The notes under the pieces are model-generated. The model did no database searches. It was given only the letters and a program-made list of their open reading frames with translations, and was not told the DNA's origin. From the IMG/VR virus record IMGVR_UViG_3300033518_000398, positions 14,764 through 78,763 of that record: a DNA stretch of 64,000 bases. The stretch is one strand, 5' to 3'. Shown here piece after piece: positions 26,703 to 49,083 of the stretch (position 1 is the first letter of the stretch; each line of letters starts with the position of its first letter). The translations under genes and the position numbers were made by a program. The DNA comes from a virus. Lineage: Duplodnaviria > Caudoviricetes.

Positions 26703-26713
26703 GTTCTTTGACA
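26703..26713 (+). promoter_or_regulatory. boxA-like element
   Basis: GTTCTTTGACA; similar sites at 31619, 39194, 47286 and 48108, all in tRNA-bearing transcripts. Confidence 0.55.
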
Positions 26714-26725
26714 TGTTGGAAATTT

Positions 26726-39130: not shown

Positions 39131-39156
39131 GCAATGATATTTGTGTATTGAAACAG

Positions 39157-39185
39157 AAACCCGATTCGTAAGATTCGGGTTTTTT
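39157..39185 (+). terminator. Attenuator terminator 3
   Basis: AAACCCGATTC-GTAA-GATTCGGGTTTTTT. Confidence 0.85.
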
Positions 39186-42903: not shown

Positions 42904-45900
42904 ATGGCACAAAAAACCCTAAAAACCTACACAAAACAAGAAGTTGAAAAAGCAACATTAAACTATTTTAAAGGAGATGGATTAGCTACCGATGTATGGA
43001 TGAAAAAATATTGTTTAAAGGATGAAAACAATTATTACGAACTCACTCCTGATGATATGCATAAAAGAATTGCAAGTGAACTTGCAAGAATAGAAGCTAA
43101 ATATCCAAACCCACTTACCGAAGAACAAATTTTTGAAACATTGAAAAATTTTAAGAGAATTGTACCACAAGGAAGTCCGATGTCAGGAATTGGAAATAAT
43201 TTTCAGGTAGTATCTATTGGTAATTGTTTTGTTATTGGAAATTATGGTGATGGTGATTCTTATGGTGGAATATTGAATATCGACCAAGAACAGGTTCAAT
43301 TAATGAAACGCAGGGGTGGCGTTGGACATGATTTATCACATATTCGTCCAGCAGGTAGTCCAGTAAAAAATAGTGCAATTAGTAGTACAGGTATCGTACC
43401 CTTTATGGAAAGATATTCAAACAGTACCAGAGAGGTTGCACAAGACGGTAGACGTGGAGCACTTATGCTCAGTGTGTCGATTAAACATCCAGATTCTGAA
43501 GCATTTATTGATGCCAAACTTGAATCTGGTAAGGTAACAGGTGCTAATGTTTCAGTTAAAATCACCGATGAATTCATGAAAGCAGTAATGAATAATAATA
43601 TGTTTCAACAGCAATATCCAATAGATAGTGATAACCCTAAATATGTTAAAAGCATTGACGCTCAAAAACTTTGGAAGAAAATTGTATATAATGCATGGAA
43701 ATCAGCCGAACCCGGTATCTTGTTTTGGGATAAAATAATTGGTGAATCAATACCTTCTTGTTATGGTAAGGAATGGATTGAAAGAAGTACTAATCCATGT
43801 GTTAGTGAAGATACATTAGTATTAACACATCATGGTTATTATGAAATTAGTGAGTTAGTAGATAAGCCAACATTTGTTTGGAATGGTATGAATTTCTCCG
43901 AAGTTACGCCAACAATTACTGGTTATAATCAGAAAATGTTAAAAGTTATCTTTAGTGATGGTTCTGAATTGAAATGTACACCATATCATGGATTTTATAC
44001 TTGGGAAGGTTTTGAACGTGATGGAAAATCAATAAAAAAGGAAGCTAAAGATTTAATCGTTGGAGATAAACTCGAAAAACATGAATTTCCAACACTTTTT
44101 GACCATCAAGTTTTTCATGTCGATAAAACTTTTTATACGTTAGGATTTTTTGCTGGTGATGGTTTTGTGAAAAGAGATAGCACAGCACATGTATCGTTAT
44201 ATGGTGCAAAGAAAAATCTTCTTGATAAATTAGATGTAATTGGTAATGTTTCTGAAGATATTGAAAATGATAAATTAACAATACGTGTTGACTTACCTGT
44301 AGATTATTTTGGAATTGATTTACATGAACTAAAAAAATATGTTCCTAAACGTCATGATAATAATTCATCGGCAATGATGTCATGGTTGGCAGGTATTATA
44401 GATTCTGATGGATGTCGTAATTCAGAAGAAGGTTCAATTTCAATATCATCAATAGATAAACAATTCTTAATGGATATTAAGTTACATCTTTTGAACGTAA
44501 TGGGTGTCAGTGGTAGTGTAATTGATGAAAAAGAAGGTGGGTTACATGAAATTAAAGGCGTTAAATATGATTGTAATAAATCATATCGTTTAATAATTAG
44601 TGCATATAATGTTAAAAAACTTTATGATTTAGGTTTACGTACCTATCGTGTTAAAATCGATGATGTTAATCCGAACCGTGATGCAAGTAGATTCATTACT
44701 GTGAAATCGATTGAGGAAATAGAAGATGCTGAAAAGGTTTATTGTTTTACTGAACCAGAAAGAGGTCGTGGATGTTTCAACGGTATTGTTACTGCGAATT
44801 GTGGCGAGTTACCACTCCCGCCATATGATAGCTGTAGATTACTTGCAATTAATTTATTTGGTTATGTGAGAAATCCGTTTACCAAAGAAGCATATTTTGA
44901 TATGGAAAGTTTTAAGGGCGATGTGATTATATCTATGCGATATATGGATGATATTATCGATTTAGAACTCGAAAAAATCGATAAAATATTAGAAAAAATC
45001 GAATCTGACCCAGAACCTGAAAATTTAAAAAGTGTAGAAAAAGAATTGTGGAATAATATTAGAAGAAAAGCTGAGTTAGGTCGTAGAACTGGACTTGGTG
45101 TTACAGGTGAAGGTGATATGATTGCTGCAATGGGACTACGTTACGGTACTGATGATGCCACCGAATTTAGTGAAGAAGTTCATAAAACATTGAAATTAGA
45201 AGCATATCGCTCAAGTGTTATTATGGCTAAAGAACGTGGTGCATTTCCGATATACGATTGGGATAGAGAAAAATTCAATCCATTTATTCGTAGAATAATG
45301 GATGAGGATACTGAATTATATAATGAAATGGTAACTTTTGGTCGTAGAAACATTGCATTACTTACAATCGCACCGACTGGAACAGTTAGTATTATGACAC
45401 AAACTACATCTGGAATTGAACCAGCATTCTTACCAGTATATATGCGTAGGCGTAAGATTAATCCGCAGGAAAAGGACGTTCGAATTGATTTTATTGATGA
45501 AGAAGGTGTTGCTTGGATGGAATATCCAGTATTTCACCATAAATTTGAAATGTGGTTAGGAATCAATGGCTACGATGTTGAAGTGGTGAAAACCATGAAT
45601 AAGGAACAACTGGATGAAATTGTTAAAAAATCCCCATTTTATAAAGCAACTTCCAATGACGTTGATTGGGTAAAAAAGGTTGAAATGCAAGGCAGGGTTC
45701 AAAGGCATGTTGACCATTCCATAAGCACAACTGTGAACGTCCCTAATGATACAACAGAGGAACTTGTTGGTAAAGTATATGAAACGGGTTGGCGTAGTGG
45801 TTGTAAGGGTATTACTATTTATCGTGATGGTAGTCGTAGTGGTGTGTTGGTTAGTCAAAAAGAAGAAAAGAAAGTAGAAGAACTCCAAGACGTGCATGCA

Positions 45901-46473
45901 CCAAAACGTCCCAAAAGATTAAAAGGTGAAATACATAGGTTTCAGAACAATCTGGAAAAATGGATAGCTGTTGTTGGTATGAAAGATGGTAGACCATATG
46001 AAATCTTTACTGGTGTTAATGCTAATGGTCTTAGTAATTTACCAACAAACGTTAAAGACTGTGAAGTCGTTAAAAATATTATCGAAGTCGAAGTTCTTGA
46101 TGATAACGATAAACCAATTAAAATAAAGAAAAAAAGATATGATATTGAATATGTTGATGTTGATGGCATTAAACAAGTACACACTGGTTTAAATCATGCA
46201 TTCAATCCAGAGTTCTGGAACTATGCCAAGTTAATCTCTGGTATAATGAGACATGGTATGCCAGTTCTTAAACAATACGAATTAATTGAGTCATTGAATT
46301 TTAAAGAAGACTATATTAATACGTGGAAAAATGGTGTGGCACGTGTAATTAAAAAATATATTAAGGATGGTGTTAAAAGCAAAGGAACGTGTCCTGAATG
46401 CGGTGGTACTGATTTTATTTTTCAAGAAGGATGTGTTAAATGTAGTAGTTGTTCTTGGACGAAATGTGGATAA
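42904..46473 (+). CDS. nrdJ: Class II (B12-dependent) ribonucleotide reductase with intein
   Basis: PQGSPM, NPC..E active site, TIAPTGT, C-terminal TSCPD-like region and Zn ribbon; Bacteroidota-like N-terminus. Confidence 0.9.
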   Translation: MAQKTLKTYTKQEVEKATLNYFKGDGLATDVWMKKYCLKDENNYYELTPDDMHKRIASELARIEAKYPNPLTEEQIFETLKNFKRIVPQGSPMSGIGNNFQVVSIGNCFVIGNYGDGDSYGGILNIDQEQVQLMKRRGGVGHDLSHIRPAGSPVKNSAISSTGIVPFMERYSNSTREVAQDGRRGALMLSVSIKHPDSEAFIDAKLESGKVTGANVSVKITDEFMKAVMNNNMFQQQYPIDSDNPKYVKSIDAQKLWKKIVYNAWKSAEPGILFWDKIIGESIPSCYGKEWIERSTNPCVSEDTLVLTHHGYYEISELVDKPTFVWNGMNFSEVTPTITGYNQKMLKVIFSDGSELKCTPYHGFYTWEGFERDGKSIKKEAKDLIVGDKLEKHEFPTLFDHQVFHVDKTFYTLGFFAGDGFVKRDSTAHVSLYGAKKNLLDKLDVIGNVSEDIENDKLTIRVDLPVDYFGIDLHELKKYVPKRHDNNSSAMMSWLAGIIDSDGCRNSEEGSISISSIDKQFLMDIKLHLLNVMGVSGSVIDEKEGGLHEIKGVKYDCNKSYRLIISAYNVKKLYDLGLRTYRVKIDDVNPNRDASRFITVKSIEEIEDAEKVYCFTEPERGRGCFNGIVTANCGELPLPPYDSCRLLAINLFGYVRNPFTKEAYFDMESFKGDVIISMRYMDDIIDLELEKIDKILEKIESDPEPENLKSVEKELWNNIRRKAELGRRTGLGVTGEGDMIAAMGLRYGTDDATEFSEEVHKTLKLEAYRSSVIMAKERGAFPIYDWDREKFNPFIRRIMDEDTELYNEMVTFGRRNIALLTIAPTGTVSIMTQTTSGIEPAFLPVYMRRRKINPQEKDVRIDFIDEEGVAWMEYPVFHHKFEMWLGINGYDVEVVKTMNKEQLDEIVKKSPFYKATSNDVDWVKKVEMQGRVQRHVDHSISTTVNVPNDTTEELVGKVYETGWRSGCKGITIYRDGSRSGVLVSQKEEKKVEELQDVHAPKRPKRLKGEIHRFQNNLEKWIAVVGMKDGRPYEIFTGVNANGLSNLPTNVKDCEVVKNIIEVEVLDDNDKPIKIKKKRYDIEYVDVDGIKQVHTGLNHAFNPEFWNYAKLISGIMRHGMPVLKQYELIESLNFKEDYINTWKNGVARVIKKYIKDGVKSKGTCPECGGTDFIFQEGCVKCSSCSWTKCG
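43798..44799 (+). mobile_element. 334-aa intein with LAGLIDADG endonuclease at the NrdJ active site
   Basis: NP/CVSEDT...GIVTAN/CGE; TLGFFAGDG and WLAGIIDSDG motifs. Confidence 0.9.
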
Positions 46474-46619
46474 TTGGGAAATTTTTAAAGTTTTGATGAA
46501 AATCAACTCACTGTGAATTTCGATGGTCAGGATTTGAATATCACCTTCGCATTAGAAGAAAAAGAAGAAAAAATCTAAACTTCCGATAAAGGTTAGTAGT
46601 CAAATGATTTTTCATTTGG

Positions 46620-46651
46620 AAACCCATCATTTAATATTTGATGGGTTTTTT
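46620..46651 (+). terminator. Intrinsic terminator after nrdJ
   Basis: AAACCCATCA-TTTAATATT-TGATGGGTTTTTT. Confidence 0.75.
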
Positions 46652-46793
46652 TATAACAATAAATTAACGTTTGTTTATTTCCATTTACTTTTTTTCAAGT
46701 AATTATATTTGTCAGGTCGGAAAGTGCCTTAAATGTTCCAATAGAGGAAGAGCCTGATTCCTATTTTTTTCGTATTTATAATAAAAGATTATC

Positions 46794-47009
46794 ATGAAAA
46801 AGAAATTATTTATATTTTTACTATTATTAACATCTGTAATATTTACTAGTTGTGCTACTCAAGAATATGCTACAACATATAAAAAACAAAAAAGTCTTAT
46901 GTTATTGGATAATACTAATTTAAGTGGAAATAATAAGTATTATCAACAAAAACATACTCGTTATAATAAGAGTAGTTATAACAAACATATAAAAAAATTT
47001 AAAAAATAA
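46794..47009 (+). CDS. Small putative lipoprotein
   Basis: Signal peptide with FTSC lipobox-like sequence. Confidence 0.7.
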   Translation: MKKKLFIFLLLLTSVIFTSCATQEYATTYKKQKSLMLLDNTNLSGNNKYYQQKHTRYNKSSYNKHIKKFKK

Positions 47010-47102
47010 TTGAAAATAATTTGGAATTATCAAAACTTTATTTACCTTTGCAAAGTATTTAGATGAAAGAGATTTCAAATTTAATCAAAACATATTAAAA
47101 TA

Positions 47103-47231
47103 ATGAAAGCACAGGTATCCAATATTAATATTTCGTCAACGATTAATAGTCGTAATGGAAATGGTATATTCTGTTCAAGTTTTACAGGCAGAAATATAGC
47201 AGATACGGGTTCTGGTTTTCATGAGTCATAA
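47103..47231 (+). CDS. Attenuator leader peptide 4: MKAQVSNINISSTINSRNGNGIFCSSFTGRNIADTGSGFHES
   Basis: 42 aa after TACCTTTG (47043); 8 Ser, 6 Asn, 5 Ile, 5 Gly, 1 Cys; CGGGTTCT 47206-47213 complementary to the terminator 5' arm. Confidence 0.8.
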   Translation: MKAQVSNINISSTINSRNGNGIFCSSFTGRNIADTGSGFHES

Positions 47232-47255
47232 ATAACTCATAAAAATATTAAAAAG

Positions 47256-47285
47256 AACCCGAATTCACAAGATTCGGGTTTTTTT
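47256..47285 (+). terminator. Attenuator terminator 4
   Basis: AACCCGAATT-CACAA-GATTCGGGTT followed by a U tract. Confidence 0.85.
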
Positions 47286-47299
47286 GTTCTTTGAAATAT

Positions 47300-47983
47300 T
47301 TATAATAAAATTTTGGTGCGGATGATTTCATCGATAATTGTGAAATATGTGTATGCCCTATCTATTTTAAAATTAATGAATTTTGATGTGTCTATAATAC
47401 ATAACTCAATTCCCTGTTCTAAACAGGCTTGAAATTTACGGTTATCGTTATTTTGAATCTGGTTTAGTTTATCTTCACCATAAATTGGTTCATAATGAAA
47501 AACACCATTAAGTTCGAATGCAAGTTTAAGTTCTGGAATATAAATATCAAGTTCAGAATTTATAGTAGTTTTATCATTGAAGAAAAAGTCAATGTTTGGA
47601 TATTTTTTTATTAATTCAATGGCAATCCATTTTTCAAGTTTTGAAATTCGAGTACCTTTAGTCTTGTGTGTGTTATTATATGTAATAGAACAAGACCTTG
47701 AGCAGAAATTTTTTGTGGATTTAGAATTTTTTATTTCATAATTCGTTTTAATAATTTCTTTTCCGCAATTACCACACATCACTATGTGTCTTTTAGTTAA
47801 AATTTGATATTGATGTGAACAATTTTGTGAACAAAATTTTGCCGAATTTCTTTTACAATTAATTGCATACATAATTTGTCTTTTTGTTGTATGAAAAGGG
47901 TTACCACAAAATTCGCATTTACATTCAAATAAATCTGTTACTTTTCCAGATATTAATTTTTCATTTTCAAATAATGGTATCAT
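47300..47983 (-). CDS. Homing endonuclease with Zn fingers and PD-(D/E)xK domain, antisense to the tRNA cluster
   Basis: CxxC repeats; ELDIYIPELKLAFELNGVFHY. Confidence 0.85.
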   Translation of the reverse strand: MIPLFENEKLISGKVTDLFECKCEFCGNPFHTTKRQIMYAINCKRNSAKFCSQNCSHQYQILTKRHIVMCGNCGKEIIKTNYEIKNSKSTKNFCSRSCSITYNNTHKTKGTRISKLEKWIAIELIKKYPNIDFFFNDKTTINSELDIYIPELKLAFELNGVFHYEPIYGEDKLNQIQNNDNRKFQACLEQGIELCIIDTSKFINFKIDRAYTYFTIIDEIIRTKILL

Positions 47984-48130
47984 ACGTAAATTTTATTATA
48001 AATACTTTAAAAATTGAATTTCTATTCAGTTTTTAAACTCAAAATAAAATATAACTCTTACTGGTTATAAACATCAAATATAGCCTCTACAGGTTATACC
48101 GTAAGACGTTCATTGACATGCTGGTTTTAT

Positions 48131-48211
48131 GAAGGGTTGCCTGAGTGGTCGAAAGGGACTGTCTGCAAAACAGTTAGGAAACTCACGTGGGTTCAAATCC
48201 CACACCCTTCT
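48131..48211 (+). tRNA. tRNA-Cys(GCA) with extended variable region
   Basis: ACTGT-CTGCAAA-ACAGT; U73; variable TAGGAAACTCAC. Confidence 0.85.
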
Positions 48212-48339
48212 CAAACATTATTTAGTAGTCGTATGCTATAGGACACTCTGGGCGATTGGACACCAGAGTCAACAGAGATAGACAGACAAAAACGTAATGG
48301 GCATGCGTATCGTACAATCCGCAATGGCATGCTAAATAT

Positions 48340-48420
48340 TGTGACGTGGATGAATGGTTTAGTCACCACGCTGATACCGTGGGTCGCAAGACAACGTGGG
48401 TTCGAGTCCCACCGTCACAA
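48340..48420 (+). tRNA. tRNA-Ile(GAU) with long variable arm
   Basis: CCACG-CTGATAC-CGTGG; variable GTC-GCAA-GAC-AAC; A73. Confidence 0.85.
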
Positions 48421-48437
48421 CAAAGTGTTGCAACACT

Positions 48438-48526
48438 GAATGATTAGAATTTCGTAGCATAGTGGTAATGCTGCCCGCAAGAAAGGGTGAAGATTGGTTC
48501 GAGTCCAATCAAAATTTTAATCATTC
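48438..48526 (+). ncRNA. tRNA-like element with about 17-bp extended acceptor stem and atypical anticodon loop
   Basis: D and T arms intact; loop GCAAGAAA; GAATGATTAGAATTTCG pairs with CAAAATTTTAATCATTC (one mismatch). Confidence 0.5.
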
Positions 48527-48532
48527 GTTAAT

Positions 48533-48623
48533 GGATAGGTACTCAAACTGGTTAAGAGGATAGTCTTGAAAACTATTAGGTCGGTTAATCCCCGATGTGT
48601 GAGTTCGAACCTCACTCTATCCG
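48533..48623 (+). tRNA. tRNA-Ser(UGA)
   Basis: ATAGT-CTTGAAA-ACTAT; long variable arm; G73. Confidence 0.9.
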
Positions 48624-48679
48624 CATTATATTATTCGATTATTTAAAATATTTAGAACTATATTTAAATATTTTTTACT

Positions 48680-48751
48680 GCGAGTGTAGCACAACGGCTA
48701 GTGCGTCTGGCTTCCACCCAGAGGATGAGGTTTCGACTACCTCTACTCGCT
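48680..48751 (+). tRNA. tRNA-Gly(UCC)
   Basis: TCTGG-CTTCCAC-CCAGA; U73. Confidence 0.9.
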
Positions 48752-48837
48752 CAACAATGTCTTCCACGCCTCTAAATTATGCGCATCTGGAAGGCTACTT
48801 GTAGAATCCAATCATAGTACTGTGATTGGATTCATAT

Positions 48838-48910
48838 AGTGATGTGGCGCAACGGTCAGCGCAGGACGCTTATATCGTCAAGGTTGTGGGTTCGAATCCC
48901 ACCTTCGCTA
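48838..48910 (+). tRNA. tRNA-Ile(UAU)
   Basis: GACG-CTTATAT-CGTC; A73. Confidence 0.8.
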
Positions 48911-48917
48911 CAAATAT

Positions 48918-49004
48918 GACTTCGTTGCTTTAGTTGGTCGAAAAGTCCAGACTGTTAATCTGGTGAACAATGTTCCATCGCAGGTTCGAATCCTGCCGAA
49001 GTCG
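48918..49004 (+). tRNA. tRNA-Asn(GUU) with long variable arm
   Basis: CCAGA-CTGTTAA-TCTGG; variable T-GAAC-AAT-GTTC-CATC; G73. Confidence 0.85.
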
Positions 49005-49008
49005 CAAT

Positions 49009-49083
49009 GCACCAGTAGCTCAGGGGTAGAGCGTTTGTCCGTTAAACAAAGGGTCGGGATTTCGAAATTCTCTTGGTGCGCCA
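49009..49083 (+). tRNA. tRNA-Asn(GUU), second copy with C33
   Basis: TTTGT-CCGTTAA-ACAAA; CCA encoded. Confidence 0.75.

Follow-up and report, generated by a model that had tools for sequence, protein, structure and literature searches.

A probable leader-peptide attenuator ahead of a tRNA array in an uncultured giant phage

Why would a phage place a promoter, a short open reading frame (ORF), and a transcription terminator ahead of a block of tRNA genes? What purpose phage tRNA genes serve, and how their expression is timed, is still an open question; the current proposals are compensation for codon usage and escape from host tRNA degradation or tRNA-targeting defenses. We studied such a locus in the window, by which we mean the whole 64,000-nucleotide stretch that was analyzed. 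The window derives from a 78.8-kb IMG/VR virus record whose CheckV completeness of 23% points to a giant phage. It contains 25 tRNA genes and one tmRNA, as detected with ARAGORN and Rfam, and four units in which a leader is followed by a terminator. The unit described here, unit 4 (47020–47285), had been proposed in a sequence-only reading to be an attenuator whose leader peptide senses several amino acids and controls the tRNA cluster downstream. BLASTN comparison of positions 46500–48200 with public phage records gave no match.

The unit comprises the following elements.

47020–47050, plus strand: Bacteroidota-type promoter, found by pattern scan, with a -33 element (TTTG, 47020–47023) and a -7 element (TACCTTTG, 47043–47050)
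47103–47231, plus strand: leader ORF of 42 sense codons, with its stop codon at 47229–47231
47131–47160, plus strand: hairpin P1 (12 bp), inside the leader ORF, from minimum free energy folds and the RNAalifold consensus of seven homologues
47162–47201, plus strand: hairpin P2 (13 bp), inside the leader ORF, from the consensus fold, near-invariant in sequence
47202–47265, plus strand: 64-nt antiterminator, with an outer helix pairing 47202–47213 with 47254–47265 and a nested hairpin at 47215–47246
47251–47285, plus strand: intrinsic terminator, with a 15-bp stem, a 5-nt loop, and a run of 7 T

This layout is that of a leader-peptide attenuator. A promoter precedes a short ORF that has a start codon, both lie upstream of the putatively regulated genes, and an intrinsic terminator separates the ORF from those genes, with a 684-nt antisense gene also intervening in the window. 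An alternative antiterminator shares a strand with the terminator. Transcription would start near 47057. On the plus strand, the pattern scan found no TAnnTTTG box between 47051 and 49112, and the interval 47290–48131 contains neither a terminator nor a TAnnTTTG box. The terminator (-17.5 kcal/mol, z -5.7) is one of only three terminator-like sites within 9 kb. Its hairpin is flanked by T runs on both strands and could also terminate the convergent minus-strand gene. Over a 241-nt stretch, the unit folds much more stably than shuffled sequences (z -4.9).

When the RNA is folded at the length it would have while the 3′ arm of the terminator is still untranscribed, it adopts the antiterminator, which has a predicted energy of -18.1 kcal/mol (z -4.6), similar to that of the terminator. 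The pairing on which the attenuator proposal was built is real: CGGGTTCT (47206–47213) is the exact reverse complement of AGAACCCG (47254–47261), and together they form the 8-bp core of the outer helix. The extra hairpin that had been noted across the stop codon is also present, with ATGAGT (47221–47226) and ACTCAT (47235–47240) flanking 47229–47231, and the stop codon lies in the loop of the nested hairpin. An 8-nt complement to the 5′ arm of the terminator arose in 155 of 20,000 shuffles of the upstream 149 nt and in 20 of 858 natural windows; for unit 4 alone, this is modest evidence (P ~0.01–0.02). The same arrangement of a complement to the terminator recurs in all four window units. Comparing the units, we observed that the terminators of unit 3 (Tyr/Lys; 39151–39185) and unit 4 (47250–47284) are 83% identical over 35 nt and that units 4 and 1 have similar promoter-proximal sequences (repeat families D9 and D13). 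Duplication may have spread the units, which would make them paralogues.

Two further ORFs lie upstream. Directly adjacent to the unit, a 71-aa ORF (46794–47009) has a lipoprotein-type signal, with a Cys following a hydrophobic stretch. It gave no family match, occupies the same place in a related phage (G001, below), and also occurs in another locus (L003:4594–4832). Farther upstream, positions 42904–46473 encode a 1189-aa ribonucleotide-reductase-like ORF with a seemingly intein-like insertion, judged by eye from the translation, which consists of a Cys-led block and a homing-endonuclease-like middle.

To find homologous units, we searched a viral collection with an alignment of two leaders. 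The sole match was G001, a 72-kb fragment of a related phage with 47 tRNAs, whose unit is 83% identical to that of the window. Using a neighboring 303-aa protein as an anchor, we found homologous leaders in five more lineages (L018, L029, L020, L030, and L062), giving seven lineages including the window. The 303-aa protein also has 13 homologues on long contigs, one of 531 kb; the comparison covers the seven lineages named. L062 is a distant lineage, with an anchor protein only 32% identical.

At the level of sequence, the attenuator reading is supported by this comparison. Promoter, ORF, antiterminator, and terminator are kept in all seven lineages, with the promoter box (TAnnTTTGC) present in the six homologues whose alignment reaches it; the L062 stretch begins downstream of the box. 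A two-tier antiterminator folds in all seven (-13.7 to -24.6 kcal/mol) despite unrelated sequences in the nested hairpin, so that the structure of the inner hairpin is kept where its sequence has changed. In L030, segments 2, 3, and 4 have changed together. The core helix is shorter in L018 (6 bp) and L029 (5 bp). Column-wise covariation of the 8-bp core was not significant (164 of 500 shuffles) in a MAFFT alignment in which L020 and L030 are misaligned at this position; folding each sequence separately is more informative for this helix.

Whether the unit acts on the tRNA genes depends on what lies between them. Downstream of the terminator we identified the following features.

47300–47983, minus strand: inserted antisense gene encoding a 227-aa zinc-finger protein, HNH/homing endonuclease-like
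~48016–48041, plus strand: decayed 3′ remnant of tRNA-Thr(GGU) at the right edge of the insertion, from alignment with G001
48108–48124, plus strand: 17-nt motif, GTTCWTTGAC followed by RTRYTGG, 23 nt upstream of tRNA-Cys
48131–49083, plus strand: putatively regulated tRNA array, from ARAGORN and Rfam: Cys, Ile(GAU), a tRNA-like gene, Ser(UGA), Gly(UCC), Ile(UAU), Asn, Asn

The distance from the terminator to tRNA-Cys is 845 nt in the window and includes the convergent gene, which could share the attenuator hairpin as its terminator. Taken alone, this gene would weaken the link between the leader and the tRNAs; the relatives appear to resolve the matter. The gene is absent from the homologous site in all six, where the first tRNA lies ~10–40 nt past the T tract of the terminator. 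With so short a gap there is no room for a promoter, and transcription of the array must pass the terminator, which supports, at the level of sequence, the proposal that the unit controls the cluster. The arrays in L018, L029, L020, L030, and L062 begin with Thr or Cys directly behind the terminator. In G001, a tRNA-Thr(GGU) gene is found ~20 nt after the terminator, followed by a spacer that matches the one before tRNA-Cys in the window; the array reads Thr(GGU), Cys, Ile, Ser, Asn, Phe, Phe, Gly, Thr, Ile, Asn, Asn. As the window retains both this spacer and, at the right junction, a decayed T-arm of the tRNA-Thr(GGU) gene, the endonuclease gene must have been inserted later, taking the place of that tRNA gene. 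In two mat metagenomes, contigs connect 47284/5 with 48101/48046, bypassing the gene; a search for RNA runs containing this DNA found none. Its product matches PHROG HNH and homing endonuclease families (E 5e-11 to 9e-6) and, in Pfam, only zf-FCS; these profile matches, together with the presence/absence polymorphism, suggest a mobile endonuclease gene. Given the distance and the convergent gene, the unit may be partly decoupled in the window phage, in which control of the array would require read-through across the inserted gene to tRNA-Cys.

ARAGORN recovered the downstream tRNAs that the sequence-only reading had listed, and the array has several peculiarities. Between tRNA-Ile and tRNA-Ser is a tRNA-like gene (48447–48518) with an 8-nt anticodon loop, to which ARAGORN assigns the 4-base anticodon aaga and which Rfam does not report at the gathering level. 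This gene is absent from that position in G001 and varies among mat strains (differences at 48450–48484); a pseudogene and a frameshift-type tRNA are both conceivable. Three genes are long for their isoacceptors: tRNA-Cys (48131–48212) and tRNA-Ile(GAU) (48340–48421), both 82 nt, and tRNA-Asn (48918–49005), 88 nt. Some tRNAs are separated by structured spacers of ~130 nt (for example, 48213–48339).

The 17-nt motif ahead of tRNA-Cys is also found elsewhere. It occurs 22 times in 0.83 Mb of related loci; 10 of these copies are 23–24 nt before tRNA-Cys, tRNA-Asp, or tRNA-Arg genes called by ARAGORN, and several more precede tRNA-like sequence that was not called. Copies are located, for example, at 26703–26719 (before tRNA-Asp), in degenerate form at 47286–47294, and at L042:11536, L062 (minus strand), L079:12066, and L080:12238. 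In distant phages as well, the motif often sits directly behind attenuator terminators or between tRNAs within arrays, and it lies between terminator and tRNA in L018, L062, L042, and window units 2 and 3. By eye, the motif lacks the -7 TA and a correctly spaced -33 element, and we rejected it as a host promoter. A literature search for GTTCWTTGAC found nothing.

A phage-specific promoter at this motif would let transcription of the tRNAs bypass the switch, and the unit could then be a self-contained small gene or small RNA beside independently transcribed tRNAs. In the window, promoter, ORF, and terminator do form a complete unit that is followed by a convergent gene, and both the strongly structured fold of the unit and the placement of the motif 23 nt before tRNA-Cys would suit such an arrangement. 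We nonetheless consider it unlikely, as the terminator adjoins the first tRNA in six relatives and a promoter at the motif would make the conserved terminators and antiterminators of L018, L062, L042, and window units 2 and 3 pointless. Motif copies also occur between tRNAs inside arrays and do not fit the host -33/-7 spacing, and the ORF, as described below, has no family match and a substitution pattern unlike that of a protein selected for its sequence. The regular placement of its copies, after terminators and in the gaps between tRNAs, would better fit a signal for processing or antitermination. The motif perhaps resembles the boxA antitermination elements of rrn operons.

We next asked whether the leader ORF is matched to the tRNAs that follow it. 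Our recount reproduced the reported composition exactly: 8 Ser, 6 Asn, 5 Ile (3 ATT and 2 ATA), 5 Gly, 1 Cys, 3 Thr, 3 Phe, and 2 Arg, with no Leu, Pro, Tyr, or Trp and with Lys at position 2 only. Codons 6–32 specify almost exclusively Ser, Asn, Ile, Thr, Gly, Phe, Cys, and Arg. Residues cognate to the downstream tRNAs make up 25 of 41 in the window leader (61% vs 30% expected from long ORFs of the phage; binomial P=2.9e-5) and 32 of 41 in the G001 and L029 leaders (78% vs 40% expected; P=7.7e-7). Of the 297 small ORFs in the genome, only 2 reach the share seen in the leader, and the leader is one of them. When matching was restricted to codons by strict wobble rules, the window leader scored 17 of 41 (23% expected, P=6e-3), which is weaker than the match at the residue level, while the G001 leader scored 26 of 41 (P=1.6e-4). 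In L029, 35 of 41 leader codons can be read by tRNAs located within 8 kb downstream.

The window array lacks tRNAs for Phe, Thr(GGU), and Ser(GCU), and the leader still has their codons. The arrays of relatives explain this, since they carry Phe and Thr tRNAs and, in L029, a Ser(GCU) tRNA that accounts for the AGT codons of the leader. One observation counts against the match: the L030 leader has seven Ile codons, yet no Ile tRNA was detected in its array.

To determine if the match is specific to each array, we compared six unrelated leader families, consisting of units 1–4 of G001 and two families from more distant phages (represented also in L050, L059, L079, and L053).

L080:11798–11908: leader family 5, before an Arg-Pro-His-Ala-Gln-Gly array
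L042:11358–11453: leader family 6, before a Cys-Thr-Gln-Pro-Leu-Glu-Tyr-Phe-Met array

Each of the six families scored best on its own array (Fisher combined P=9e-20), and the true pairing of leaders with arrays was the best of all 720 permutations. Thus, the match that the multi-amino-acid sensor claim relied on is array-specific, and the cross-matrix and permutation test led us to reject generic AT-rich composition as its source. The L080 leader is spelled in Arg, His, Met, Pro, Ala, Gln, Leu, Gly, and Ser; we found no simple antiterminator complement for leaders of this type. The L042 leader is spelled in Thr, Leu, Tyr, Gln, Pro, Phe, Met, Cys, and Glu, and its array holds exactly those tRNAs.

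The way in which the leader varies bears on what is selected. The reading frame is open in all seven lineages, at 40–49 codons. Substitutions among close homologues fall at the three codon positions in a ratio of 7/10/9, showing no third-position bias, and ~10 of 15 replacements stay in or move into the cognate set (for example, Asn/Ser, Ile/Thr, and Gly/Ser). Together, these patterns indicate selection on composition and on RNA rather than on the peptide sequence. The ORF has no Pfam or PHROG family match, and with this and the absence of third-position bias, we rejected a functional small protein as the main reading.

We then modeled how a ribosome on the leader would affect the two structures, masking a 30-nt footprint at each codon in turn. 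In this thermodynamic model, the probability of the antiterminator is >0.9 with the A site at codons 1–30, 0.7 at codon 31, and 0 at codons 32–41. The cognate-rich stretch (codons 6–32) ends at this folding boundary between codons 31 and 32, and the cognate stretch ends at the folding boundary in all four window units. The regulatory codons are therefore both enriched and placed so that, in the model, a stall leaves the antiterminator and a ribosome at the end of the ORF leaves the terminator. A ribosome at the stop codon would sit inside the antiterminator loop and, on steric grounds that the model does not capture, block closure of the outer helix. With no ribosome, the model gives the antiterminator a probability of 0.95, which implies that read-through is the predicted default and that termination would occur only if translation is completed in time.

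From these results, we think it likely that the unit is a ribosome-mediated leader-peptide transcription attenuator that gates the phage tRNA array. The leader ORF would be translated, and the outcome would be set by a kinetic race between the ribosome and formation of the terminator. Host RNA polymerase would initiate at the 47020–47050 promoter and transcribe the leader, and the antiterminator (47202–47265) would fold before the 3′ arm of the terminator is synthesized. If the antiterminator persists, the terminator would be blocked and transcription would continue into the tRNA genes. A fast ribosome would reach codons 32–42 and the stop codon, inside the antiterminator, and melt or split this structure; once it is opened, the terminator (47251–47285) would form and transcription would stop. 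A ribosome delayed anywhere in codons 1–31 would arrive too late to prevent read-through. As nearly all of this stretch encodes amino acids that the downstream tRNAs carry, slow decoding would raise transcription of exactly those tRNAs, constituting a negative feedback on decoding capacity. Because the quantity measured would be the total transit time over ~30 test codons, the design suits a sensor of many amino acids, and unit 4 would be among the most multivalent, sensing 7–9 amino acids through ribosome transit time.

Extending this to the whole clade, whose members are uncultured giant phages that come from mats and sediments and have Bacteroidota-type promoters, we lean toward a view in which each array is gated by its own attenuator, with the leader serving as a codon-by-codon test of the tRNAs it controls, such that the phage tops up those that are depleted. 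The depletion sensed would be that of the host tRNA pool, through phage takeover or through host defenses that cleave tRNAs. This would be the first known case of translation-coupled attenuation acting on tRNA genes.

A different reader of the switch, acting through the hairpins inside the ORF, deserves consideration. The nucleotides of P1 and P2 are nearly unchanged even in L062, their conservation far exceeds that of the neighboring proteins, synonymous sites included, and P1 has a few compensatory pairs in the RNAalifold consensus. This very high conservation hints at an additional RNA-level function. P1 is possibly a site of RNA polymerase pausing or a ribosome brake, and we would guess the same for P2. 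The choice between antiterminator and terminator might instead be made by a protein or RNA that binds P1/P2 (for example, a phage factor or an uncharged tRNA), leaving the ORF secondary, and the lack of third-position bias in the ORF would be compatible with such a reader. We regard this as quite improbable. It leaves unexplained why six unrelated leaders spell the amino acids of their own arrays, why a frame of 40–49 codons is open in seven lineages, and why the run of cognate codons stops just at the point from which a ribosome would occlude the antiterminator. Moreover, units 1–3 have no counterparts of P1/P2, Rfam gave no T-box match at E values as high as 10, and no family model reached its gathering threshold over the unit, the best being Thr_leader (RF00506) at 29.4 vs 55 bits, mainly over the terminator.

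Chance, in the form of a bidirectional terminator shared by the lipoprotein-like and endonuclease genes beside an accidental AT-rich ORF, is already disfavored and in our view highly improbable: T runs do accompany the hairpin on either strand, an AT-rich phage such as this one uses Ser, Asn, Ile, and Gly frequently, and the 8-nt complement alone is only of P ~0.01–0.02, but a conserved promoter separates the lipoprotein gene from the ORF, the unit is kept where the convergent gene is absent, the composition (P 3e-5 to 8e-7) is specific to its own array, and the antiterminator is retained despite sequence change.

The attenuator proposed here can be compared with several known systems. Enterobacterial leader attenuators include the multivalent thrL (Thr and Ile) and ilvGMEDA (Ile, Leu, and Val) leaders, as well as trpL, hisL, and pheL, for the last of which the mechanism is described in PMC3082878. 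The phage unit shares with the thr and ilv attenuators a promoter, a short ORF enriched in regulatory codons, and a pair of hairpins, antiterminator and terminator, that exclude each other; as in those systems, the position of the ribosome would decide the outcome and more than one amino acid would be sensed. It differs from the enterobacterial attenuators in its phage location, its Bacteroidota-type signals, and its targets. In classical attenuators, the regulated genes supply the sensed amino acid through biosynthesis or transport; here the targets are tRNAs rather than biosynthetic enzymes, and the feedback would act on decoding capacity rather than on amino-acid synthesis. Also, in place of the short run of regulatory codons in enterobacterial leaders, 7–9 amino acids are represented over ~27 codons, and the predicted default without a ribosome is read-through, whereas trp without translation terminates.

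T-box riboswitches of Firmicutes likewise choose between a terminator and an antiterminator and thereby report tRNA charging. A T-box recognizes a single uncharged tRNA by direct contact, for which it uses a specifier codon and the T-box sequence, and it needs no translation; the phage unit has a conserved ORF. In translation-sensing leaders of antibiotic-resistance genes, of the ermC type (mentioned in PMC2965389), a slowed ribosome on a short ORF switches RNA structure, as it would in the phage unit. There, a drug-bound ribosome stalls at a specific peptide, and in ermC translation is controlled, in contrast to the tRNA-matched codons and transcription termination of the phage unit.

The nearest published functional analogue that we found is the trn operon of Anabaena sp. 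PCC 7120, a long tRNA array that is silent and becomes induced under translational stress (PMC8421152); this paper does not mention an attenuator, leader peptide, or terminator. The Anabaena array is repressed by the ribbon-helix-helix protein TrcR (PMC10272220). Both systems have an accessory tRNA array whose transcription rises, or in the phage is predicted to rise, when translation is impaired. They differ in that Anabaena uses a protein repressor at the promoter, whereas the phage unit has a cis-acting leader ORF and alternative hairpins, and would be specific for the amino acids of its own array. Our literature search, which covered phages and bacteria, found no account of tRNA genes under leader-peptide attenuation. 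In the 1980s, leaders resembling attenuators were discussed for the tRNA-Phe genes of E. coli.

Overall, the comparisons support a form of control that is already known in kind, in a variant that appears new and that a mobile endonuclease gene seems to have partly disrupted in the window. The arrangement also suggests an annotation rule, in which a short ORF followed by a terminator and a tRNA array marks such a unit and the composition of the leader predicts the tRNAs that the array once contained; the Phe and Thr codons of the window leader would thus point to tRNAs that this phage has lost. If our reading is correct, leader-peptide attenuation would extend from amino-acid metabolism to the decoding machinery, and a single short leader would integrate many amino acids via ribosome transit time. 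The supply of phage tRNAs would then be driven by demand, with each block of tRNA genes switched on only when its own codons are slow to be read.
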